From: an uncultured Acidobacteriaceae bacterium
GTDB taxonomy: Bacteria; Acidobacteriota; Terriglobia; Terriglobales; Acidobacteriaceae
Length of the DNA stretch: 64,000 nt
Direction: 5' to 3'
Assembly (NCBI GenBank): GCA_963850345.1
Contig: CAWKKW010000007.1
Coordinates: 689-64,688 of the forward strand
Position 1 is the first letter of the stretch, and every line of letters starts with the position of its first letter. Under the pieces are notes generated by a model. That model ran no database searches and was not told the DNA's origin. It was given only the letters and a program-made list of their open reading frames with translations. The translations under genes and the position numbers were made by a program. Shown here in pieces: positions 5,619 through 16,799 of this stretch.

Positions 5619-6827
5619 TTACCAGAGCGGGCCAGCGTGTTTTCGCAGTTCGCGCAATGAATACAGCGTTCCCCTCCATCGCACGCCCCCATGCATCAGC
5701 GTGACCGTCATGGAGCGGAGCATCGCATACAGAGAGACTGCCGCAGCCAAAGGCAGGGTAAAAGCAAACGCAGTCGAGATTCCCGTTTGCCGCCGGTTGA
5801 ACTGGTACAGCAGGAGAATCGCCGCGAAGGTCACCAGGCTGGCCAGCAGACTGCCGACCGTTCCAAACAATCCAATTACCGGCAACAGCGTGAGAACTGC
5901 CACGCCGAGGGCCGCCCCAATCAGAAGTGCCGGCCGGAAGCGAAACGCCGCAAACACATTCTTGGTCAGGTTATCAATCACGCCCAGCGCGCCAGCCGCC
6001 CAGCGAATGCGGATCAGATCGCGCCCATAGGCCACGCACTGTCGATAGCCGCTGCGCTTGACCTTGAAACCCAACCGCACGTCGTCCAGAACTTCCATCC
6101 TAAGCGATTCGTAACCGCCCACTGCGTAATACACCTTCAGCCGAATCAAGTTGAATGCGCCGAGTCCGATAAAATCTCGTTTCGACTTGGGATCGGGCAC
6201 TCGCCACGCGCGAAATCCCCAAATAAGCGCCGCATTGAAGAACGAAATCATCATCCGCTCGCCAAAGCTCCGCACATCGACTGTGGGAAACAGGACCAGG
6301 TGATCGGCCTTATCCAACTCGGCAAACCGCAGAGCTCGTCGCAACGAATCTTCCCGGAATACCACGTCCGCATCGGTAAACAGCAGCCACGGCGCGCTGG
6401 TCTGGCTGGCTGCCATCGCCATCGCGTGCGGCTTGCCGAGCCATCCGTCGGGCAGCTGGCGAATGTGCAACACTCGCAGCAAGGGCCCCACAGCACCAGC
6501 CTCTGCCGCGATTGCATCCATGATGGCGCCCGTCTCATCGGTCGATCGATCGTCGACGGCGATGATCTCGAGATTCACCCCGCGAATGGCCAGTAACGAT
6601 CGCAGCGTACCTTCGATCGCGCCAGCCTCATTCCGAGCCGGGACGATCACGCATACTTCAGGAGTGGCTGAGGACTCAGGCCGGCCCTGATCAAATCGGG
6701 GATCCAGCAGGTTTGGGATCTCCGGCGAATGTCTCCAGGCCATCCACACGCGCCAGCTCCAGCCAACGGCGACCAGCCACTGGATGAGGAGCAACGCAGA
6801 ATGGATCAGTGAGCGCCCGGACATCAT
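5619..6827 (-). CDS. Membrane-bound family-2 glycosyltransferase (HpnB/HpnI/CrtQ-like lipid glycosyltransferase type)
   Basis: VIVPARNE...AVDDRSTDETG and FTDADVV (DxD) motifs. One N-terminal TM helix and several C-terminal ones. Start taken at the ATGATG at 6827/6824; the longer track ORF would overlap the upstream MFS gene. Confidence 0.8.
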   Translation of the reverse strand: MMSGRSLIHSALLLIQWLVAVGWSWRVWMAWRHSPEIPNLLDPRFDQGRPESSATPEVCVIVPARNEAGAIEGTLRSLLAIRGVNLEIIAVDDRSTDETGAIMDAIAAEAGAVGPLLRVLHIRQLPDGWLGKPHAMAMAASQTSAPWLLFTDADVVFREDSLRRALRFAELDKADHLVLFPTVDVRSFGERMMISFFNAALIWGFRAWRVPDPKSKRDFIGLGAFNLIRLKVYYAVGGYESLRMEVLDDVRLGFKVKRSGYRQCVAYGRDLIRIRWAAGALGVIDNLTKNVFAAFRFRPALLIGAALGVAVLTLLPVIGLFGTVGSLLASLVTFAAILLLYQFNRRQTGISTAFAFTLPLAAAVSLYAMLRSMTVTLMHGGVRWRGTLYSLRELRKHAGPLW

Positions 6828-6897
6828 TGCTGTCCAGTATCGCCTGAGTTCACTCTTACGACCCTCCCCATGTGTGTGGGTTGTCAGCGCGTGAAAA

Positions 6898-8214
6898 CTA
6901 CGTCGGAGAACTTCCTGCAACCTGCCTCTCCAGTTGCGGCGCGAATCTCGAGCCGGCAAACAACAATACGGCCGACACGGCAAAGGCAATTAACGTCACG
7001 CCCAACCCCATTCTCAGAGAGCTGTGATCGGAGATGCGACCGATGATTCGCGGCGAGGGCGCGTCTCCCAGTGCGTGAATCAGAAACAGGTTGACCGCGA
7101 TCGCCATAGACCGCACCCGTGCCCCGACAGAATTCACGATGGCCGCATTCAAGGGACCGGTGTTCAGGAAGATGAAAAACTCCGCCACAAACGCCGCCGG
7201 GATCATGACGCTTCGCGGACCAAAGAAAACCAGGACAGCACCGGGAATGGCCAACAAAGCACTCCAGGCCGAGAGCAGGTAGAGCGCGCGGTGATTGTGT
7301 CTCAGCCACCGCTGCGCGAGCCAGCCTCCCAGAATCGTCCCAAGCAGGCCATCGACCACCGTGATTCCTCCTACCACCAGCCCCGCCTTCGCCACCGATA
7401 GGCCGCCGAAGCGCACAAAAAATGTAGGGAGGAATGCGGAGATGCCGCCCATCGAAAACACCAGGGCTGCCATTCCTAGGGTTGCGGTGAGATAAGCAGG
7501 ACGAGCCAGGCCCTTCGCAACCGAGAGAAAGTATGCAGCCAACCCACGCGAGTCCGTGCTCGCCGCTGGTGCTTCCATCCCGTAGGAGACATGGTCCGCA
7601 GCCCCGCGCGTCGGTTCCTTCACCCAAACCGAGAAGGCCGCCGCGATGAGTATGCCGGGTACCGCCGACACCAGAAACGGCGTTCGCCATCCGTAGCGCG
7701 AGCCCACCACCCCACCGATTAAATAGCCGAGTGCCGCGCCCACTGGAATTGCTATGTAAAACACGCTCAGGATGCGGTTGCGATCGATCTCCGGATAGAA
7801 ATCCGCCAGCAACGCAGGCGCGAAGATGCCGAACGTGGCCTCGCCAATGCCCACAACTGCATGGCGAAAGTACAGCGCCTCGTAACTGTGCACCGTCGCC
7901 GTAAGCAACGTGAGCACGCACCAGAGCAGCGCGCCGGCAACCAGCAGCGGCTTGCGTGGAAACCTGTCTCCCAGCCAGCCGGTAAGGGGAGCCGCCAACA
8001 TGTAGACGAAGAAAAATGCTGTCGTCAGCGCGCCGAACTTCTCATCGCCGATCGCGAACTCGCGCTGCACCAGCGGCTGCACACCGAAGAGAATGTAGCG
8101 GTCGATGTAGTTAAACAGGTTCAGTCCCGTAAGCAACAGCAGCGCGACCGCAGCTCCGCGGAACTGCGCGGGGGGAGCGACGCTGAGGGATGCTTGAGAT
8201 CGGGAAGCAGGCAT
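6898..8214 (-). CDS. MFS transporter (Spinster-like subgroup, tentative)
   Basis: About 12 hydrophobic helices and the MFS loop motif GWLGDRFPRKP. Start is either 8214 or 8244. Confidence 0.85.
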   Translation of the reverse strand: MPASRSQASLSVAPPAQFRGAAVALLLLTGLNLFNYIDRYILFGVQPLVQREFAIGDEKFGALTTAFFFVYMLAAPLTGWLGDRFPRKPLLVAGALLWCVLTLLTATVHSYEALYFRHAVVGIGEATFGIFAPALLADFYPEIDRNRILSVFYIAIPVGAALGYLIGGVVGSRYGWRTPFLVSAVPGILIAAAFSVWVKEPTRGAADHVSYGMEAPAASTDSRGLAAYFLSVAKGLARPAYLTATLGMAALVFSMGGISAFLPTFFVRFGGLSVAKAGLVVGGITVVDGLLGTILGGWLAQRWLRHNHRALYLLSAWSALLAIPGAVLVFFGPRSVMIPAAFVAEFFIFLNTGPLNAAIVNSVGARVRSMAIAVNLFLIHALGDAPSPRIIGRISDHSSLRMGLGVTLIAFAVSAVLLFAGSRFAPQLERQVAGSSPT

Positions 8215-8277
8215 GGGCTTGCGCGCCCAGAATAACAGGCGCATCTATTCGCCCCATTGGCGCCGGAGGATCGCTTG

Positions 8278-8685
8278 CTATTTTTCAGCGGGAACGGGCC
8301 GAGGCCAACGCGCTTCGACGGTGGTCGAAATACCTCCGCGCGGGCGAAAATCACCGGTTACAAAGGCCCACACCGGATCGCACGCCTTCACCACGTCTTC
8401 AAGGACCTGGTTGACGATGTTTTCCTGAAAAATCCCCAGATTTCGATAGCAGAACAAATATTCCTTGTACGACTTCAGTTCAAGGCAGCGCTCACGAGGC
8501 ATGTAGCGCAGCGTGATGACTCCGAAGTCGGGCAATCCGGTCTTGGGACACACCGAAGTAAATTCCGGGTCGTCAATCACGATCTCATACGCGGCAAACT
8601 GATTTTGCCAGGTCTCAATTCCGGGGAAGGCGAAGTCGAGGCCGGCCTTCGCGTGTTCGTCGGTATAGCGGGAAATTGTTGCCAT
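8278..8685 (-). CDS. queF: NADPH-dependent 7-cyano-7-deazaguanine reductase (type I QueF)
   Basis: CPKTGLPDFG active-site Cys motif and QueF motif ELKSYKEY. Start at the MATISRY ATG (8685). Confidence 0.9.
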   Translation of the reverse strand: MATISRYTDEHAKAGLDFAFPGIETWQNQFAAYEIVIDDPEFTSVCPKTGLPDFGVITLRYMPRERCLELKSYKEYLFCYRNLGIFQENIVNQVLEDVVKACDPVWAFVTGDFRPRGGISTTVEARWPRPVPAEK

Positions 8686-8808: not shown

Positions 8809-10044
8809 ATGGCTACAGTAAGAAAAAGCAATAATCGCGTCCTGTGGGTCGCGGCCGCTTTGCTGCTGGTGATCGTCTTTTATGGCGTTCGACTCGCCAC
8901 GCGAACCAAGCTGCCCGTTCGTGCCGCCGAGGCTCTGCGCGAGCCGCTGATCAAGACGCTTGCCACGAACGGCAAGGTCGAGCCGCAGGTCAACTTCGAG
9001 GCGCACGCACTCTCCCCCGGCCTGATCAAAGCAGTCTATGTTCACGAAGGCGATAAAGTTCCCAAGGGCAAGTTACTGCTCTCCATGGACGACACCGAGG
9101 CCCGCGCAAGGCTAGCCAGCGCAATCACTGGATTGCGTGCCGCCCAGGCAAGTTACGAAGCGACCACCCACGGTGGTACCCAGGAAGAGCGAGTGTCCAA
9201 CTCCGCCGATCTGACCCGCACCCAGGCAGATCGCGACCAGGCGCAGCGTGATGTCACCGCATTGGAGAAGTTAGTTGCCACCGGCGCTGCCTCACAAAGT
9301 GAAGTGAATGCCGCAAAGCAGCGCGTCTCTCAGGCTGATAATTCGATCACGGTACTGCAGCAGCGATCCCAGACTCGCTACGCACCGATCGATCTGGAGC
9401 ACGCGAAGGCCGCGTTGAACGATGCCCAGACCTCGGTCGCCGCCGCTCAGGCAGTGGTCGCATCCGCCAACGTCCGCGCGCCGTTTGCCGGCACCGTCTA
9501 TTCCCTGCCGGTCAGCCCTACTGAATATGTAGCCCAGGGCGATCGCCTGCTGCAGATGGCCGACTTATCCAAGGTCCAGGTTCGCGCCTACTTCGATGAG
9601 CCCGAGATCGGCACGCTGCAGACCGGACAGCCGATCCGCGTGGAGTGGGCTGCTAAGCCCGGTCGCTCGTGGCATGGACACATCGTGCATGTGCCCTCCA
9701 CCATCATCAACTACGGCACGCGCAACGTCGGCGAAGTGCTGATCAGCGTCGACGACTCCGACGGAACACTGCTGCCCAGCACCAATGTGACCGTCACAGT
9801 TACAATCAACAATGTCGCCAGCGCAGTCACCGTTCCCCGCGAGGCGCTGCATACCGAGGCCGGCAAAGATTACGTCTACACCATCACCAAAGACAAGCTT
9901 CACCGGACCCGCGTCCAGGTAGGGGCCATCAATCTGACCCAGGTGCAGATTGTGTCTGGTGTGAATGAGCACGATCAGGTCGCGCTTGGCACCACCAATG
10001 GCCAGCCTATCAGCGCTGGGGTCCCGATCGAAATCGTGAAATAA
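8809..10044 (+). CDS. Efflux periplasmic adaptor (membrane fusion protein, HlyD/MacA-like)
   Basis: N-terminal TM anchor, long coiled-coil segment, C-terminal beta-barrel region ending in a QVQIVSGV..GD.V-type motif. Confidence 0.85.
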   Translation: MATVRKSNNRVLWVAAALLLVIVFYGVRLATRTKLPVRAAEALREPLIKTLATNGKVEPQVNFEAHALSPGLIKAVYVHEGDKVPKGKLLLSMDDTEARARLASAITGLRAAQASYEATTHGGTQEERVSNSADLTRTQADRDQAQRDVTALEKLVATGAASQSEVNAAKQRVSQADNSITVLQQRSQTRYAPIDLEHAKAALNDAQTSVAAAQAVVASANVRAPFAGTVYSLPVSPTEYVAQGDRLLQMADLSKVQVRAYFDEPEIGTLQTGQPIRVEWAAKPGRSWHGHIVHVPSTIINYGTRNVGEVLISVDDSDGTLLPSTNVTVTVTINNVASAVTVPREALHTEAGKDYVYTITKDKLHRTRVQVGAINLTQVQIVSGVNEHDQVALGTTNGQPISAGVPIEIVK

Positions 10045-10045
10045 C

Positions 10046-11041
10046 GTGTCCTGTCGCTTGCCCCAACTCGGAGTCACTCTGCGTTCCGTCGCTGTTGTTT
10101 TAGCCGCCTTTGGACTGGGACTTCATACCGATGCTGCAGCGGCCCTCGATCTGTCGATCAAAACTTCGGTCAGTTCCGCGCTCGTCGAGGGTCAGGCCGA
10201 TACCGCCATTCAGCGCCTGAATCAGATTCTGGCCGAAAACCCTCAAGACGCCGATGCGCATAACCTACTGTGCCGCGTTTACTACCAGGAACAGCGTTGG
10301 GACGAGGCCACGCGCGAATGCGAGGAGGCGACCCGCCTCTCGCCGGCCAGCAGCAACACGCATCTGTGGCTGGGCCGCGTCTACGGTGAAAAGGCCGACC
10401 GCGCTTCGTATTTCCAAGCCTACCGATTGAGCCAGCGAATCCGCACAGAGCTAGAGCTTGCGGTAAGACTCGATCCGAAGAACCCCGACGCTCTGGCCGA
10501 TCTCGCTCAGTTCTATACTGAGGCGCCCTCCATCGTCGGCGGCGGCATTGACAAGGCGAAGGCCATTGTCGCCCGCATGGAAGCAGTCGATCCTGCGCAA
10601 GCCCACGATCTGCTCGCCCGCATCGCATCGCAGCAGAAGGACTATGCTCGCGCAGAAAACGAATGGAAGGCCGCCATCTCCATGTCGCCGACGCCTGCGC
10701 GGTACTGGACGGCCCTCGCCTCCTTCTATCGCAAGCAGCAGCGGTGGGACGACATGATGCACGCCATACGCGAAGGTGTAGCAACGGATCGAACGGCCGG
10801 AGTCGCGCACTACTATGCTGCTTCGTTGCTGATCCGTTCCGATCGTGAACCGGAACTCGCCGTTCGGCTGCTCGAACAGTATCTTGCATCGGAAAACAAG
10901 TCAGAAGAAGCTCCCGCGTTTCACGTGCACGCGCAGCTGGCCCAGTTGCTCCAGGCGCAAGGCGATGTTGCGGGAGCGCAACGCGAAGTAAAGGCTGCAA
11001 AGGCATTGGCGAGCGACTATCGCCTTCCCAATCCCCGATAG
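10046..11041 (+). CDS. TPR-repeat periplasmic protein
   Basis: GTG start 1 nt after the adaptor stop codon. Signal peptide, then repeated TPR-like A..LG.VY / A...Y..A helices. Confidence 0.75.
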   Translation: MSCRLPQLGVTLRSVAVVLAAFGLGLHTDAAAALDLSIKTSVSSALVEGQADTAIQRLNQILAENPQDADAHNLLCRVYYQEQRWDEATRECEEATRLSPASSNTHLWLGRVYGEKADRASYFQAYRLSQRIRTELELAVRLDPKNPDALADLAQFYTEAPSIVGGGIDKAKAIVARMEAVDPAQAHDLLARIASQQKDYARAENEWKAAISMSPTPARYWTALASFYRKQQRWDDMMHAIREGVATDRTAGVAHYYAASLLIRSDREPELAVRLLEQYLASENKSEEAPAFHVHAQLAQLLQAQGDVAGAQREVKAAKALASDYRLPNPR

Positions 11042-11089
11042 AATCAGGCAGGTAAAATCAACGGATGTGTCACCGCAAGCGGAGAACGA

Positions 11090-12400
11090 GTGAAGCGTAG
11101 CAGCCACTGGATTGTCCTGGGAATATGCACCGCGTTCTGCTCCATTCCAGCAGGTGCGCAGGTGTCCCTCTATACGGCTGTGGACCTCGCGCTACGCAAC
11201 AGCCCGGCGGTGCGTATGGCCACCGCGGACGTGGAACGGGCCCAGGCCGCGCTCACCGAAGCGAAAGACGTCTACATCCCCAGCTTCGTGCTCGGCTCCG
11301 GCCTTGGCTATTCCTATGGATTCCCTGTGGGCCAGCCATCCGTCTACAACGTCACCTCGCAGTCCCTGGTGCTCGGGTTTTCGCAACCGGACTACATCCG
11401 CTCCGCAAAAACTGCATTGAACTCCGGTCAGCTCGCACTCAAAGATATCCGCCAGCAGGTCATCCTAGATACCTCATTACAATATGCGGAGTTGGACAAG
11501 CTTACGCAGGAGACCGCCGCGTTGGACGCGCAGAGCGCCGCTGCAGAAAAGCTGGTCAACATCGAGCAGCAGCGGCTCGATGCGGGATTAGCCTCACGCA
11601 GCGAGCTCCTACGTGCCCAGCTGACTGGGGCGCAAGTCCGCCTCAAGCGCCTCCACCTCGAAGGCGACGCACAGCTATTGCGACAGAAGCTGGCCAACCA
11701 GACCGGCCTTCCTGCTGCAACCTTCGTGACCAGCACGCAATCGATTCCGCCGTCGCCCAGTTTTCAGATCGGCAACGAATTGCAACACGACATGGCCGTC
11801 TCAAACGACGGTGTGCGCGCAGCGTATGCCTCCGCGAAATCGAAGCTCTACATGGCCCACGGCGCGCAGAAAGAGATCTTCCGGCCACAGATCGCCTTTG
11901 CCGCGCAGTACAACCGCTTCGCCACCTTCAACAACTACCAGGACTACTACAACCACTTTCAGCACAATAACTTCGGCATTGGGATCTCGATCACCTTCCC
12001 GATCTTCGACGCCTCCCGTAAGGCCAAGGCCATCGGGTCCGCTGCCGAAGCAGCCCACGCGGCAGCCCAGGCAGACCAGGCGCGCGCCCAGGCCGGTGAG
12101 CAGGCGACCCAACTGGACGCCAGTCTGCGGGAGCTTACTGCGCAACAGGACATCGCGCGTCTTCAAAGCGAATTGGCTGCCAGCGATCTCCAGACCGTGG
12201 TCACACAGTTGGAGACGGGCAGCGGCTCCCCCAACGGCCCGCAGATGACCCCTCGCGATGAGCAGCAGGCGCGCATCGAGGAGCGGCAGCGTTACCAGGA
12301 ATACCTCGATGCCAACTTTGACCTGTTGCGGGCCCAACTCACCTTGCTACGCATGATTGGGACCATCGAGGATTGGGCCAAGGCCTCTCCACACCCCTAA
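11090..12400 (+). CDS. TolC-family outer membrane efflux protein
   Basis: GTG start with GGAG SD 5 nt upstream. Signal peptide; two-fold repeated OEP architecture with coiled-coil segments. Confidence 0.85.
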   Translation: MKRSSHWIVLGICTAFCSIPAGAQVSLYTAVDLALRNSPAVRMATADVERAQAALTEAKDVYIPSFVLGSGLGYSYGFPVGQPSVYNVTSQSLVLGFSQPDYIRSAKTALNSGQLALKDIRQQVILDTSLQYAELDKLTQETAALDAQSAAAEKLVNIEQQRLDAGLASRSELLRAQLTGAQVRLKRLHLEGDAQLLRQKLANQTGLPAATFVTSTQSIPPSPSFQIGNELQHDMAVSNDGVRAAYASAKSKLYMAHGAQKEIFRPQIAFAAQYNRFATFNNYQDYYNHFQHNNFGIGISITFPIFDASRKAKAIGSAAEAAHAAAQADQARAQAGEQATQLDASLRELTAQQDIARLQSELAASDLQTVVTQLETGSGSPNGPQMTPRDEQQARIEERQRYQEYLDANFDLLRAQLTLLRMIGTIEDWAKASPHP

Positions 12401-12534
12401 GTCCTCTCTCTTCAACGCCTGTAACAGCTATTTTCTTCGCGCGCGAATCGATGCGACTGCCGGAGACGTCCAATAAGGAGTAACCCCGTAACCCGGCGCT
12501 CGTGCCCTGCCGATGCTAAAATAGTAAGGATCCT

Positions 12535-14013
12535 ATGCCCCTAAAAACATTGTTCTTAAACCCGCCCTCCTTTGAGAACTTCGATGGCGGTGCCAGCTCC
12601 AGGTGGCCCGCTACTCGTGAGATCGAATCCTACTGGTACCCTGTGTGGCTGGCTTATCCGGCAGGGATGCTCGAAGGTTCGCGGTTGCTGGATGCGCCGC
12701 CCCACCACGTGTCGTGGCAGCAGGTCAACGATATCTGCAAGGACTACGATTTCCTGGTCCTCTTCACCAGCACCATCGGCTGGTCCGGCGATCAGCGCAT
12801 GGCAGAGACAATTAAGGCCACGCATCCGAACATCAAGATCGCCTTCGTTGGACCGCCGGTCACAACCTCGCCCGAAAAGGCACTCACCGAGTGCGCGGCC
12901 ATCGACTTCATCTGCCGCCGCGAGTTTGACTTCTCCGTGGTGGAGTACGCGAACGGAAAGCCGCTGACCGAGATCCTCGGCATCAGCTATCTCGAAAACG
13001 GCAAGATCGTCCACACACCCGACCGGCCGCAGGTCGATGACCTCGACGCAATGCCCTGGGTCACCGAGATCTATTATCGCGACCTCGATGTCACCAAGTA
13101 CAACGTCCCATTCCTGATGCACCCCTACGTGGCTCTTTACTCCACGCGCGGATGCCCGGCGCAGTGCACCTTCTGCCTGTGGCCGCAGACGCTCTCGGGC
13201 CACGCCTGGCGCAAGCGCTCGACCGACGACGTCGCCGCCGAAATGGCGAACGCCAAGAAGCTTTTCCCGCACGTGAAGGAATTCTTCTTTGACGACGACA
13301 CCTTCAACATCAACGCAGCGCGCACCATCGAGCTCTGCCAGAAGCTGAAGCCGCTAGGCCTCACCTGGTCCTGCACCTCGCGCGTGACCACCAGCTTTGA
13401 GACCCTCAAGGCTATGAAGGAAGCCGGTTGCCGCCTGCTCATCGTGGGCTTCGAGTCCGGCGATCCGCAGATTCTCAAAAACATCAAGAAGGGCGCCACC
13501 GTCGAGCGCGCACGCGAGTTTGCCCGCGATTGCCACAAGCTCGGCCTGACCATTCACGGCGACTTCATCCTCGGCCTTCCCGGCGAAACTCGGGAGTCGA
13601 TTCGCAACACCATCAACTTCGCCAAGACTCTCGACGTCGAGACCATCCAAGTTTCGATTGCCCACGCGTTCCCCGGCACCGAATTTTACGAATACGCCAA
13701 GGTGAACGGCTTCATCACCAATCAAGACATGGCTGACGAAGGTGGACACCAGATGGCCCACATCGAGTATCCCGGCCTGCCCGTCGACTACGTGTTGGAG
13801 ATGGTGCACCGCTTCTACGATGAATACTACTTCCGTCCCAAGGCCGCGGCGCGCGTGATCTGGAAGGCGGTCGTCAACCGCGACGTTCCTCGCCTTTACA
13901 CCGAAGCCAAGTCGTTTATGAAGCTGCGTGCCCAGCGCAATAAGATCGTCGCGCAGGGTAAGGCCAACCAGAAAACCACCCAGCCCACTCCCGCAGTCGG
14001 CGCTGGGGTCTAG
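12535..14013 (+). CDS. hpnJ: Hopanoid-associated B12-binding radical SAM protein HpnJ
   Basis: N-terminus TLFLNPPSFENFDGGASSRWPATREI..YWYP.WLA matches what I recall of the HpnJ family. Radical SAM CxxxCxxC motif is CPAQCTFC (first Cys codon at 13153-13155). Confidence 0.85.
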   Translation: MPLKTLFLNPPSFENFDGGASSRWPATREIESYWYPVWLAYPAGMLEGSRLLDAPPHHVSWQQVNDICKDYDFLVLFTSTIGWSGDQRMAETIKATHPNIKIAFVGPPVTTSPEKALTECAAIDFICRREFDFSVVEYANGKPLTEILGISYLENGKIVHTPDRPQVDDLDAMPWVTEIYYRDLDVTKYNVPFLMHPYVALYSTRGCPAQCTFCLWPQTLSGHAWRKRSTDDVAAEMANAKKLFPHVKEFFFDDDTFNINAARTIELCQKLKPLGLTWSCTSRVTTSFETLKAMKEAGCRLLIVGFESGDPQILKNIKKGATVERAREFARDCHKLGLTIHGDFILGLPGETRESIRNTINFAKTLDVETIQVSIAHAFPGTEFYEYAKVNGFITNQDMADEGGHQMAHIEYPGLPVDYVLEMVHRFYDEYYFRPKAAARVIWKAVVNRDVPRLYTEAKSFMKLRAQRNKIVAQGKANQKTTQPTPAVGAGV

Positions 14014-14050
14014 CTTGCAGCGGTGATTTCAATCGGGCGGCCGGCCCACC

Positions 14051-14536
14051 ATGCTGGCCGCCTTTGCATTTGGTGAAAGCAGGGCAATGGTTCACTCCAC
14101 AATGAATGCACGCCGCTACTTGATACTGGCGGTCGTCACCCTAACCGCTTCTCTGGGCGATACGGTTCTCTCTGTCGGGATGCGGCAGATCGGCCCGGTT
14201 TCGCTGCACCATCTGAACACGTTACTGTTCGCGATGCACAATCCCTGGATCCTCGGCGGCGTCGCCCTGCTCATCGGATTTTTCGCGTCTTATCTCACCG
14301 CGCTCTCGTGGGCCGATCTTACCTTCGTGCTTCCGGCGACCTCGCTCGGCTATGTTGTCGTCGCCCTTCTCTCGAAGTTTTGGCTTAAGGAACAGATCTC
14401 CCCGCTGCGCTGGCTGGGAATCTTTCTCATCACCGCCGGCGTTGGCTTCGTCACGCGCGGACCTTCGTACACCGATCACTCCAAGCCCTTGCCGGAATCC
14501 GTTCCCTCCGGCGTTCAGGAAGTAGGGCGGCCATGA
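14051..14536 (+). CDS. Half-size DMT/EamA-like membrane protein (ArnE/ArnF-like), subunit 1
   Basis: Hydrophobic helices (about four by eye). GDTVLSVGMRQIG and FWLKEQISPLRWLG motifs. Start uncertain (14051, 14087 or 14102). Confidence 0.7.
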   Translation: MLAAFAFGESRAMVHSTMNARRYLILAVVTLTASLGDTVLSVGMRQIGPVSLHHLNTLLFAMHNPWILGGVALLIGFFASYLTALSWADLTFVLPATSLGYVVVALLSKFWLKEQISPLRWLGIFLITAGVGFVTRGPSYTDHSKPLPESVPSGVQEVGRP

Positions 14537-14940
14537 TGCCGGCGCAAACCATGATCACCTCGCAAGGACTCGCGCTCATCGGCATGATTGGAGCAATCGT
14601 TGTCACCGCCACCGCCGGCGATATTCTCACCGCCTCTGCGATGCGGCAGATCGGCGACCTCGACGCGATCCGCGCAGTGCGAGGATTGCCTGGCGCAATC
14701 ATCGCCGTCGTGACCAACCTCCGCTTCATGGGCGGGGTCCTTTGCATGGCGCTTAGCTTCTTCGCCCTGCTCTTCGCGCTCAGTCATGCGGACGTGAGCC
14801 TCGTAGCGCCGGCTTCCGCTTCTCTCACCTTCGTCACCAACGCGGTCGCGGCAAGATTCTTTCTCAAGGAGAATGTCGATCGCCGCCGCTGGATGGCCGC
14901 CGTCTGCGTCTGCTTTGGCGTAGCGCTGCTCGCGCACTAG
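14533..14940 (+). CDS. Half-size DMT/EamA-like membrane protein (ArnE/ArnF-like), subunit 2
   Basis: ATGA overlap with the previous gene (14533-14536). Paralogous motifs GDILTASAMRQIG and FFLKENVDRRRWM. Confidence 0.7.
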   Translation: MMPAQTMITSQGLALIGMIGAIVVTATAGDILTASAMRQIGDLDAIRAVRGLPGAIIAVVTNLRFMGGVLCMALSFFALLFALSHADVSLVAPASASLTFVTNAVAARFFLKENVDRRRWMAAVCVCFGVALLAH

Positions 14941-14947
14941 AAAACCT

Positions 14948-15370
14948 ATGACCACCGATCCGTTCAATCTCAACCGATTTGTCGAGGCGCAGCAGCCCAT
15001 CTTCGAGCGCGTCCACTCGGAGTTGCGCCGCGGTCAGAAACAAAGCCACTGGATGTGGTTCATCTTCCCTCAGATTCTAGGCCTCGGCTTAAGCCCCATG
15101 GCTGAGAAGTACGCAATCGCCTCGATCGAGGAAGCCGCAGCCTATCTCGATCACCCGATCCTCGGGCCACGACTGCGCCAGTGCACGCAATTGGTGAATG
15201 AAGTCAGCGGCCGTACCATCAGCGACATTCTCGGCTACCCAGACGATCTGAAGTTTCGATCGTCAATGACTCTCTTCGCTAAAGCGACAGCCGACAACCA
15301 GGTCTTCCACGATGCGCTGAAGAAATATTTCGAAGGCAAGCCTGACGAGCGCACCCTCGAGCTGCTCTGA
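14948..15370 (+). CDS. DUF1810 family protein
   Basis: FNLNRFVEAQ...Y..V..EL..G.K.SHWMWFIFPQ signature. Starts 7 nt after the previous stop codon. Confidence 0.8.
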   Translation: MTTDPFNLNRFVEAQQPIFERVHSELRRGQKQSHWMWFIFPQILGLGLSPMAEKYAIASIEEAAAYLDHPILGPRLRQCTQLVNEVSGRTISDILGYPDDLKFRSSMTLFAKATADNQVFHDALKKYFEGKPDERTLELL

Positions 15371-15392
15371 GCGTGGGCACGTCGCGAGACCT

Positions 15393-16799
15393 TTACAGCA
15401 GGCGCATGAGACCTGTCGCCGGAATATCAGCCGGCAAAAACTTGCGCTCCTCGCCGAATGTGCGGGTAAGAGCCTCGGCTGCAAGATAACCGCTGCGCGC
15501 AGCACTCTCCATCGTCGACGGCCATCCCGTGTTGGTCCAATCTCCCGCAAGGAACACGCCCCGCCACGGGCTCTCCGCATCGGGGCGCAGTTTATCCAAG
15601 CCGGGCAAGACGGAAAACGTAGCGCGCGCTTCCTTCAGAATTCCGCTCTTCACTACACGAGCTTTCTTCACCTCAGGAAAGAACAGCGCAAGCTCCTCAA
15701 TTGCGCCTGAGAGTATCTCCGCCCGCTCCTGCCTCAGCGAGTCTTCTGAGGCCGCAATCACCAACTCAACATAGCTGCCCTGTTCCGGCGCCGCGCCACG
15801 AATCCGCGACTTATGAAAGATCCACTGAATGCGCGTATCGAGCAACGCTGCATGGTGCAGATCGGTAATCTCGCGGTCAAACCAGAGATGCACCGTCGTG
15901 TATGGCGAATGCACAAACTGGGTTAAATTGATGGCGAGTTGATCCGCCTCCGCGTTGCGGGGCATTTTTTGTATCAGCTTCTGTACCTGTTCAAACGGCA
16001 GCGCCAACACTACTGCGTCAGCCACAAATTCGCCCTGGTTCGTAACCAGGCACCAGCGACCGTCAGGATCTCGCGCCAGCGATTCGACACTGGACCGGAG
16101 ATGCACGCTTCCACCCAGCGACTCGATCAGGCTCGCAGCATGGGAGTACAGATCGCTCAACGGAATCGTTGGTATGCCTAGCTTCGCGCCGCCAGGCGAA
16201 CGCAGAAACAGCTCGCGAAATACGTGTGCACAATGACGCGTCGAACACTCTTCGAATCCATCATTCAACGTGCAGACCACCACCGGCTCCCAGAAGTGAC
16301 GGATCGCCCTCTCCGTCTGCCCGGTACGCTTCAGCCACTGCGCAAAGCTCTGAGTGTCATTGGGCGGAATTCCGGTCAGGAACTGTGACATACCTCGAGC
16401 GATCGCAATTTTGTCCCTGAGCCCCAGCATCGGTGCACGCAAAAAGCCTGCGGAAAAGTGCAGCGGAGCCGGCAGTCCGTTCGCCGAAAATTCACTGGCC
16501 CTGCCGTTCGACTCGAGGAACGTGAGCTTGTCGTACCAGCGAATCTTGTCCGACATCCCGGAGCGTTCGTACAACTGCATCAGGCTGGTGCAGCAGCCAA
16601 GCAGAACGTGCTGACAGTCCACCACCTCGCCCAGGGCGGGGTGTTCGTAAGAAGAGGCGCGGCCACCTACGAATGGACGGCGCTCCAGCAATTGCACCTC
16701 GTATCCTGCTTCGGCAAGAGCCGAGGCGGCGGTCAGTCCGGCAACTCCGGCACCGACCACTGCGACCGATCTTTTCTGCTTGATTTCGGAATTCGGCAT
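15393..16799 (-). CDS. hpnE: Hydroxysqualene dehydroxylase (FAD-dependent, phytoene-desaturase-like)
   Basis: FAD fold VAVVGAGVAGLTAASALAEAGYEVQLLERRPFVGGRA. Sits directly after hpnC-hpnD. Confidence 0.9.
   Translation of the reverse strand: MPNSEIKQKRSVAVVGAGVAGLTAASALAEAGYEVQLLERRPFVGGRASSYEHPALGEVVDCQHVLLGCCTSLMQLYERSGMSDKIRWYDKLTFLESNGRASEFSANGLPAPLHFSAGFLRAPMLGLRDKIAIARGMSQFLTGIPPNDTQSFAQWLKRTGQTERAIRHFWEPVVVCTLNDGFEECSTRHCAHVFRELFLRSPGGAKLGIPTIPLSDLYSHAASLIESLGGSVHLRSSVESLARDPDGRWCLVTNQGEFVADAVVLALPFEQVQKLIQKMPRNAEADQLAINLTQFVHSPYTTVHLWFDREITDLHHAALLDTRIQWIFHKSRIRGAAPEQGSYVELVIAASEDSLRQERAEILSGAIEELALFFPEVKKARVVKSGILKEARATFSVLPGLDKLRPDAESPWRGVFLAGDWTNTGWPSTMESAARSGYLAAEALTRTFGEERKFLPADIPATGLMRLL

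Follow-up and report, generated by a model that had tools for sequence, protein, structure and literature searches.

Results

A pair of half-size membrane protein genes downstream of hpnJ

The 64-kb window analysed here, a whole stretch of 64,000 nt of DNA from an uncultured Acidobacteriaceae bacterium, contains a gene for HpnJ, an enzyme of the amino-sugar branch of hopanoid biosynthesis, which is followed by two overlapping genes for small membrane proteins. We named these proteins subunits A and B (EamA1 and EamA2), and the question addressed here is what this pair does. The unit comprises the following features.

12535..14013, + strand: hpnJ, the upstream gene of the unit; B12-binding radical S-adenosylmethionine (SAM) enzyme of the cyclitol-ether step
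14035..14063, + strand: G+C-rich, intrinsic-terminator-like hairpin, 3' of hpnJ and 5' of the corrected start of A; the ATG at 14051, which is not conserved, is enclosed by it
14051..14536, + strand: open reading frame (ORF) of subunit A (EamA1), 161 amino acids (aa), corrected to 14102..14536, about 144 aa; half-size membrane protein of predicted EamA/small multidrug resistance (SMR) fold
14533..14940, + strand: subunit B (EamA2), 135 aa; half-size membrane protein of predicted EamA/SMR fold
14533..14536, + strand: ATGA start/stop overlap from A to B, read directly from the sequence

An original prediction, made from the letters of the sequence, had described two small membrane proteins (about 145-160 and 135 aa) encoded in 14051-14940, with the first ATG 37 nt past the hpnJ stop codon and an ATGA overlap at 14533-14536. 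All of these elements are present: the two ORFs are 14051-14536 (161 aa) and 14533-14940 (135 aa) on the plus strand, and hpnJ ends at 14013. The gene upstream had been called hpnJ, and its product is indeed a true HpnJ, scoring 748.3 bits against TIGR03471 (cut-off 577.6) and containing the Radical_SAM and B12-binding domains of Pfam. A and B are paralogous, as had been proposed (30% identity over 116 residues, E = 5e-15), and both contain the motifs GD(T/I)..(G/A)MRQIG and F(W/F)LKE......W. Their proposed assignment to EamA also holds: the threshold of the Pfam family (PF00892) is 28.2 bits, and A and B score 29.8 and 31.6 bits, respectively, in matches that cover the last three helices of the profile. 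No match of A or B to the Pfam SMR family (PF00893) was found at E values up to 0.01. Each protein contains one EamA repeat, unlike the canonical transporters of the drug/metabolite transporter (DMT) superfamily, which have 10 transmembrane helices, a length of about 280-300 aa and two repeats per chain. By its sequence, the ATGA overlap is a predicted site of translational coupling. No second copy of the pair was found elsewhere in the source genome.

Linkage between the pair and hpnJ in Acidobacteriota

We searched 301 genomes spread evenly over the Acidobacteriota with HpnJ and then with subunit B. HpnJ scored above its cut-off in 36 genomes, 33 of which encode both halves; in 29 of these the halves lie within about 1.6 kb downstream of hpnJ on the same strand. 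None of the 265 HpnJ-less genomes encodes two halves (Fisher p = 6e-41 for the co-occurrence, uncorrected for phylogeny). A second sample consisted of 80 further Terriglobia-like loci obtained by scanning contigs with an HpnJ alignment. Enough sequence 3' of hpnJ is available for 72 of them, and A followed by B is present after hpnJ in 65. The recurrent linkage, whose absence would have refuted the original prediction, is therefore borne out, and the pair is among the most constant features of these loci. The 4-nt start/stop overlap of A and B is conserved in 59 of 68 related loci.

Two further observations were made on these loci. In two members of the same family, a gene for a predicted secreted protein of about 245 aa without a family match is located between hpnJ and A (L024, 5607-6362; L025, 5846-6577; both on the minus strand). 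In addition, five metagenome-assembled genomes (MAGs) titled Verrucomicrobiae, Acetobacteraceae, Binatia, Verrucomicrobiia and Dormibacterota (L064, L068, L098, L100 and L104, respectively) contain hpnJ loci that are 71-79% identical to the acidobacterial one. The "Acetobacteraceae" MAG groups with the Acidobacteriota, and such MAGs look like mislabelled bins or mis-binned contigs.

Linkage between the pair and hpnI and hpnK

In the branch of the pathway considered here, HpnI adds N-acetylglucosamine (GlcNAc) to bacteriohopanetetrol (BHT), HpnK deacetylates the product, and HpnJ contracts the ring to give the cyclitol ether. The gene order hpnJ-(hpnK)-A-B-hpnI is present in seven families of the Genome Taxonomy Database, f2, f4, f13, f39 and f50 among them, and the HpnK of these operons scores 294.7 bits (cut-off 232.6). 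In a family of Blastocatellia (f19), B and a true HpnI (386.7 bits; cut-off 310) form one protein, with B at the N-terminus. Such B::HpnI fusions are found in 221 protein clusters, of which those named by organism all belong to Blastocatellia/Acidobacteriota; the name given to them by the Prokaryotic Genome Annotation Pipeline is simply HpnI. In one genome (G189) the pair is located away from hpnJ, and there it adjoins hpnI (L027). Moreover, four HpnJ-less Acidobacteriota genomes from four families (G117, G152, G220 and G278; L127-L130) contain one half beside hpnI and hpnK, in one case in the order shc-hpnH-hpnA-hpnG-hpnI-hpnK-EamA. These single halves are about 127-150 aa long and have a near-neutral charge bias. 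Presumably, judging from their sequences, they represent the same transporter as a dual-topology homodimer, and their presence beside hpnI-hpnK is presumably a sign that BHT-glucosamine is an end product in these bacteria.

The fusion to HpnI, the adjacency to hpnK, the pair near hpnI and the single half that persists without hpnJ together argue that the pair is tied to the whole amino-sugar step and not to HpnJ alone. Hence, the tie to hpnJ that had been predicted is recurrent, but it is not specific for HpnJ.

The source genome of the window encodes an HpnI of 346 bits (cut-off 310), a second HpnI-like protein of 301 bits and an HpnK-like deacetylase of 169 bits, which is below the cut-off; their genes are all at unlinked sites. 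This fits the published account of Acidobacteria of subdivisions 1 and 3, in which hpnI and hpnJ are present and a clear hpnK is not (PMC5462960).

A single-chain A::B form in Cyanobacteria

A profile search of 1.8 billion representative proteins detected proteins of 277-285 aa with two profile matches. These single-chain A::B proteins form 256 clusters from Cyanobacteria. The first half scores better with the A profile and the second half with the B profile, so that the order A-then-B is identical in pairs and fusions. The tandem form scores 41.5 bits with the EamA profile and the single-half form 36.5 bits.

In a Prochloraceae MAG (L121), two tandem genes (7537-8382 and 10388-11227) are located on either side of hpnK (255 bits) and ahead of hpnI (375 bits), and both HpnK and HpnI score above their cut-offs. 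The tandem gene of Synechocystis sp. LKSZ1 abuts a gene for an HpnI-type glycosyltransferase of family GT21 (assigned by Pfam and BLAST), and that of Gloeothece verrucosa is located 5.6 kb from hpnJ (812 bits) and hpnI. The tandem gene is unlinked in three other cyanobacteria, yet each of them has an HpnI or HpnI-like protein (above the cut-off at 387.5 and 357.8 bits, below it at 289.5 bits); no HpnL was found in these three. Using the natural B::HpnI fusion as a two-part query, we then screened 301 cyanobacterial genomes, scoring four candidates per genome. Among the matches listed, all 23 cyanobacterial genomes with a match to the family also have an HpnI-type match, which is a lower bound, and the A::B form is present only in HpnI-positive Cyanobacteria.

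In five cyanobacterial loci a gene for a protein of about 282-289 aa, without a Pfam or NCBIfam match, is located directly beside the tandem gene (L120, 6988-7836; L121, 8415-9284; L122, 1303-2169; L124, 7134-7988; L125, 7198-8052). This neighbour may be a further partner of A::B.

Predicted fold and orientation of A and B

In AlphaFold2 models of B (predicted local distance difference test, pLDDT, 87.6; predicted template modelling score 0.74) and A (pLDDT 81.8), four long helices are present together with one shorter helix after the first transmembrane helix (TM1). Foldseek searches of the Protein Data Bank gave Gdx-Clo and EmrE as the best matches of B (probability 1.0) and EmrE and Gdx as those of A, with a template modelling score (TM-score) of up to 0.73; A also touches SLC35B1, a DMT protein. 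The entries matched were 6wk5 (Gdx-Clo) and 7mgx, 8uwu and 8uoz (EmrE), with target-normalised TM-scores of 0.65-0.74 and E-values of only 0.03-0.1. A and B are both predicted by these models to have an SMR-like fold that can be superimposed on the EmrE/Gdx protomer.

In an alignment of 88 A sequences, residues G19, D72, P78, E97 and W104 are invariant and R103 is present in 87 sequences. Position 20, in TM1, is D in 79 of them and N in eight. All 85 B sequences have D or E at position 30, also in TM1. We liken this acidic residue to Glu14 of EmrE by sequence pattern alone.

The topology was predicted from the lysine plus arginine (K+R) bias, computed on a four-helix model. The bias of B is positive in all 85 orthologs (mean +7.6), nearly all Lys and Arg residues being located in loops 1 and 3. 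The bias of A has a mean of -1.3 and is negative in 65% of the orthologs. From the concentration of Lys and Arg in loops 1 and 3, B is predicted to be strongly N-out/C-out; A is predicted to be weakly N-in/C-in. In the fused form, the C-terminus of B is followed by an uncharged linker, the first helix of HpnI and the stretch RDRQRQR on the cytoplasmic side, and a predicted C-out end of B fits fusion to an N-out first helix of HpnI. For the tandem form, evaluated over 120 proteins, the bias is -4.4 for the first half (counted with the K/R-rich linker) and +5.9 for the second half, and a hydrophobic segment of about 14 aa is present between the halves, as expected if an additional crossing inverts the second half. 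Single-half forms have a bias of about 0 to +2 (hand-counted from sequences), as expected if they are dual-topology proteins. Thus, the charge pattern of A and B is the one predicted for an antiparallel dimer. The earlier idea that A and B form a heterodimer gains support from the conserved 4-nt overlap, the opposite charge biases and the natural A::B fusions.

Comparison with known systems

The pair had been likened to ArnE/ArnF (PmrL/PmrM), the flippase for undecaprenyl-phosphate-L-Ara4N of E. coli and Salmonella. The likeness in architecture stands: both systems have two paralogous subunits of about 110-145 aa whose genes adjoin and overlap, and both follow a glycosyltransferase of family GT2 and a deacylase that build a lipid amino sugar (ArnC/ArnD and HpnI/HpnK, respectively). 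The A and B profiles also detect E. coli ArnE (hhalign probabilities of 92.6% and 89%), with which A and B share the motif L-H-E-x-V-S-x-x-(R/H)-W-x-G. E. coli ArnF, in contrast, is not recovered (1.7% and 0.1%), and the pair is located with hpnJ and the hpn cluster, whereas no arn genes such as arnC, arnD and arnT were found in the window; the E. coli arn operon served for comparison. The proposed lipid would also differ, being a triterpenoid polyol and not a polyprenyl phosphate, and the product would be an end product and not a sugar donor. We know of no glycosyltransferase fusions or single-chain A::B forms among Arn proteins. By sequence comparison, A and B are remote homologs of ArnE and not members of ArnE/ArnF, so that family membership, the other part of the proposed likeness, falls away.

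The pair resembles SMR proteins (the dual-topology homodimers EmrE and Gdx, and pairs such as EbrAB and YdgEF) in that these are its best structural matches, in an acidic residue in TM1 that is likened to theirs by sequence pattern, and in that singletons have a near-zero bias, pairs have opposite biases and fusions contain an extra linking segment. It is unlike them in having an EamA score instead of a PF00893 match and an extra helix between TM1 and TM2, and its context points to a lipid and not to a small cation. Canonical DMT transporters have two repeats per chain, a feature shared by the cyanobacterial relatives but not by the proteins of the window.

The small multi-pass membrane flippase GtrA is encoded beside the lipid-directed GT2 enzyme GtrB of O-antigen glucosylation. 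The pair resembles GtrA in this logic, and it differs in family and in the lipid, which for GtrA is polyprenyl phosphate; the two were likened by description only. HpnN acts on the same lipids as those considered here, but it belongs to the resistance-nodulation-division (RND) family and acts between the membranes rather than across the inner one. HpnL (TIGR03476) occupies the same operon position as the pair, beside hpnI-hpnJ-hpnK or after hpnJ or hpnK, but it is about 350 aa long, belongs to PF03706 (MprF membrane-domain type) and is unrelated in fold and sequence.

Distribution of HpnL and HpnN

We searched for HpnL and HpnN in 37 Acidobacteriota genomes, namely the 36 with HpnJ above the cut-off and G209, in which a partial HpnJ scores below it. 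None of the 37 encodes HpnN. The three HpnJ genomes without the pair hold the best HpnL-like genes of the 37, two of them directly after hpnJ or hpnK and one beside ispH, and no HpnL-like gene was found in pair-bearing genomes of Terriglobia or of family f50. Burkholderiaceae and Methylobacterium, sampled through plasmid and chromid records of Proteobacteria, have hpnL beside hpnI-hpnJ-hpnK and no EamA pair. The HpnL proteins match PF03706 (LPG_synthase_TM), and A and B match EamA only. Judged by these gene contents, the distributions of the pair and HpnL are complementary, not strictly exclusive. Strict mutual exclusion, which we considered, was rejected, because four genomes contain both the pair and HpnL-like paralogs.

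In three genomes (G016, G251 and G009; L111, L112 and L114, respectively) HpnL-like genes of the PF03706 type are located beside YdjC/HpnK-like paralogs, away from hpnI and hpnJ. These genes may constitute a second lipid-sugar module.

What HpnL does is still unexplained in the 2025-2026 literature (10.1101/2025.07.29.667474; PMC12583986). HpnN, which acts between the membranes, is described in the passage of PMC12583986 that cites it as the only hopanoid transporter with experimental support, and recent surveys name no further candidates near hpn clusters (10.1101/2025.07.29.667474; PMC12583986). EamA genes are not mentioned in 10.1101/2025.07.29.667474 or PMC5462960, and we found no description of the pair in the searchable literature on hpnJ and EamA or on hopanoid flippases.

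Discussion

A candidate flippase for amino-sugar hopanoids

How extended hopanoids with polar head groups leave the leaflet in which they are synthesised is an open question. HpnI, HpnK and HpnJ need UDP-GlcNAc, SAM and reductant. They therefore act in the cytoplasm, and a bulky cationic head group made there should not cross the bilayer unaided. The pair follows hpnI, hpnK and hpnJ rather than shc or hpnH; in other words, it tracks the point in the pathway at which unaided flip-flop should fail, and for this reason we favour a flippase. In this model, A (about 144-149 aa) and B (135 aa) would be made in equal amounts via translational coupling and would insert oppositely into the membrane, giving an antiparallel heterodimer of SMR-like fold within the EamA/DMT superfamily. 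The substrate of the dimer would be glucosaminyl-BHT and/or its cyclitol ether, flipped to the periplasmic leaflet. In TM1, the carboxylate that B always and A usually contains would serve as the binding site for the amine, a role that Glu14 of EmrE has for cations, and transport might be coupled to protons. A parallel would then exist with the modification of lipid A, in which ArnC (GT2), ArnD (deacylase) and ArnE/ArnF (flippase) would be the corresponding components.

The paralogy, the predicted fold and topology, the conserved synteny, the gene fusions and the phyletic co-occurrence were all observed, and from them we infer the heterodimer, its substrate, the direction of transport and flipping itself. 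On balance, we lean towards the view that A and B form an antiparallel heterodimer flippase for glucosaminyl-BHT and/or its cyclitol ether. More tentatively, the family may be the first dedicated inner-membrane flippase for hopanoid glycolipids, occurring in four forms (single half, A/B pair, A::B and B::HpnI), of SMR type and possibly proton-coupled, with a TM1 carboxylate that recognises the protonated amine of glucosaminyl-BHT or the cyclitol ether, physically coupled to the glycosyltransferase in the fused form and functionally the counterpart of HpnL.

Several observations weigh against this interpretation. The co-occurrence counts are uncorrected for shared ancestry. In the source genome, hpnI and the hpnK-like gene are unlinked to the pair. 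The charge bias of A is weak, being zero or positive in 35% of the orthologs. The scores with the Arn families are far below their cut-offs: A and B reach 16.6 and 20.9 bits, respectively, with NF011625 (ArnE; cut-off 92 bits), and with NF002816 (ArnF; cut-off 99 bits) A reaches 16.8 bits and B gives no match. Solved proteins of the SMR fold transport small cations and not lipids, and only ArnE/ArnF among proteins with this fold are credited with lipid flipping, on the basis of genetics. Weaker single-half relatives (E values of about 1e-7 to 1e-16) are present in one HpnJ-less acidobacterial family (f32) and in Cyanobacteria that lack HpnI (for instance G609, G615, G618, G669, G672 and G693); the relatives in HpnI-less genomes indicate that the family in its wider sense extends beyond hopanoid loci. 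As regards the argument based on HpnL, four pair-bearing genomes also contain weaker HpnL-like paralogs beside YdjC-like genes, and the function of HpnL is itself unknown (bioRxiv 10.1101/2025.07.29.667474).

Alternative explanations

The pair might be a partner of HpnI without transport activity, which hands over the BHT acceptor or holds HpnI, HpnK and HpnJ at the membrane. The direct B::HpnI fusion in 221 clusters is what such a partner would look like, and so are the pair or single half that adjoins hpnI even without hpnJ and the pair that, on leaving hpnJ, goes with hpnI (L027). Nevertheless, the fold is that of a transporter, the conserved TM1 carboxylate is typical of substrate binding, and the pair is located far from hpnI in most Terriglobia, the source genome included, and in most of the cyanobacteria examined. 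Moreover, stand-alone HpnI functions in Proteobacteria without the pair. We consider a purely accessory role rather unlikely.

A second possibility is that A and B form a co-regulated DMT/SMR transporter of a small solute, such as a cationic by-product, a free amino sugar or a cofactor in exchange, and do not act on a lipid. Small metabolites and cations are the usual substrates of those EamA and SMR proteins that have been characterised, and the weaker single-half relatives in HpnI-less genomes would agree with such a role. The family follows HpnI and HpnK as its minimal gene set, however, and there is no soluble by-product specific to these two enzymes. In addition, a solute pump would not readily account for covalent attachment to a lipid glycosyltransferase, and the HpnL-like genes of the genomes without the pair are of the lipid-handling type PF03706. 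This makes transport of a small solute quite improbable.

The third alternative concerns an array of genes that precedes hpnJ in the window, assigned by family as follows.

8809-10044, + strand: membrane-fusion protein (adaptor), upstream of hpnJ
10046-11041, + strand: tetratricopeptide repeat (TPR) protein, upstream of hpnJ
11090-12400, + strand: TolC-like channel, immediately 5' of hpnJ

There is no pump gene within this array (8809-12400), and the pair might be its inner-membrane component, giving an envelope-spanning system for the delivery of hopanoids to the outer membrane where HpnN is missing. Most Terriglobia loci have adaptor, TPR and TolC-like genes ahead of hpnJ and the pair (a TolC-like gene in 61 of the 80 related loci), inversions have left the array adjacent to both (L060, L063 and L080), and none of the 37 genomes encodes HpnN. 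When hpnJ and the pair have parted, though, the array keeps company with hpnJ (L118; compare L027), and no such array was found in the sequence examined around the pair of families f50, f39 and f19 or in the cyanobacterial loci. The divergently transcribed gene for a transporter of the major facilitator superfamily (MFS) is an equally good pump candidate, and no tripartite pump with a DMT/SMR engine is known; PMC8277102 lists only pumps of the ATP-binding cassette, RND and MFS types. A role of the pair as the inner-membrane component of the array is thus very improbable. Because HpnN is absent from the HpnJ-positive Acidobacteriota genomes, the array itself is a candidate route of hopanoids to the outer membrane, and it might provide a second leg of export.

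Finally, the Pfam scores barely above threshold and the public annotations "DMT permease" and "EmrE-like" might suggest a generic multidrug-type pair that is beside hpnJ by coincidence, a notion we give almost no credence. It is already contradicted by the linkage, which extends to at least seven acidobacterial families and recurs in a second phylum, and by gene fusions that are of two independent kinds.

Comparative support for a lipid flippase of the type proposed here comes from the place of the genes in the operon, from natural fusions of two kinds and from their co-occurrence with HpnI in both phyla, and the Acidobacteriota examined lack HpnN, most of them lacking HpnL as well. We regard the pair as the best candidate for the inner-membrane crossing step of amino-sugar hopanoids in Acidobacteria and Cyanobacteria. 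If the pair and HpnL are functionally equivalent, the pair would also suggest a role for HpnL. With singleton, paired and fused forms side by side, the family also bears on how the topology of membrane proteins evolves, and for geochemistry the pair would be an extra marker gene for producers of BHT-glucosamine and cyclitol ether.

The hairpin and the start codon of subunit A

The hairpin that had been noticed around the first ATG exists. It spans 14035-14063, consists of 11 base pairs (9 of them G-C) with a 7-nt loop, is followed by the tail TTGCATTTGG and is the most terminator-like site of the region. The region does not fold better than shuffled sequence (z = -0.86), it contains three terminator-like sites compared with 2.6 in shuffles and thus no excess, and no Rfam match was found in 12300-15500. 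A comparable hairpin with a T-run is present at the same position in only some relatives (L036, L043, L051, L062 and L073); in others, the gap between hpnJ and A is only 6-22 nt. The hairpin is probably a lineage-specific partial terminator, attenuator or RNA-stability element and not a conserved regulator.

Residues 1-13 of the 161-aa ORF of subunit A are missing in 70-90% of 87 orthologs, and conservation in the alignment begins at Met18. On this evidence the ATG at 14051 was rejected as the start, and the predicted start of A is ATG 14102 or ATG 14087, giving a protein of 144-149 aa. ATG 14087 has GGTGA 10 nt upstream. Both candidate starts are located 3' of the hairpin, in agreement with the earlier guess of a downstream start.

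Other genes in the window

Downstream of the pair, the window contains one gene that we considered as a further member of the unit.

14948..15370, + strand: DUF1810 gene (PF08837, 201 bits), 7 nt 3' of subunit B

It was rejected as such, because none of the 80 related loci contains a DUF1810 homolog after the pair; by this comparison it is probably a local insertion outside the unit. Opposite the pair, the minus strand carries the remainder of a hopanoid cluster, namely hpnE, hpnD, hpnC, two zinc dehydrogenases, an hpnG-like gene, hpnA, hpnH, shc and ispH. The region 5619-8244 on the minus strand, divergent from the adaptor-TPR-TolC array, contains the MFS transporter gene and, downstream of it, a GT2 gene whose best score is HpnB-like (155 bits, below the cut-off of 379). 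The MFS gene is located at the same position in many related loci, and in two of them (L075 and L099) the neighbouring GT2 matches HpnI by BLAST.

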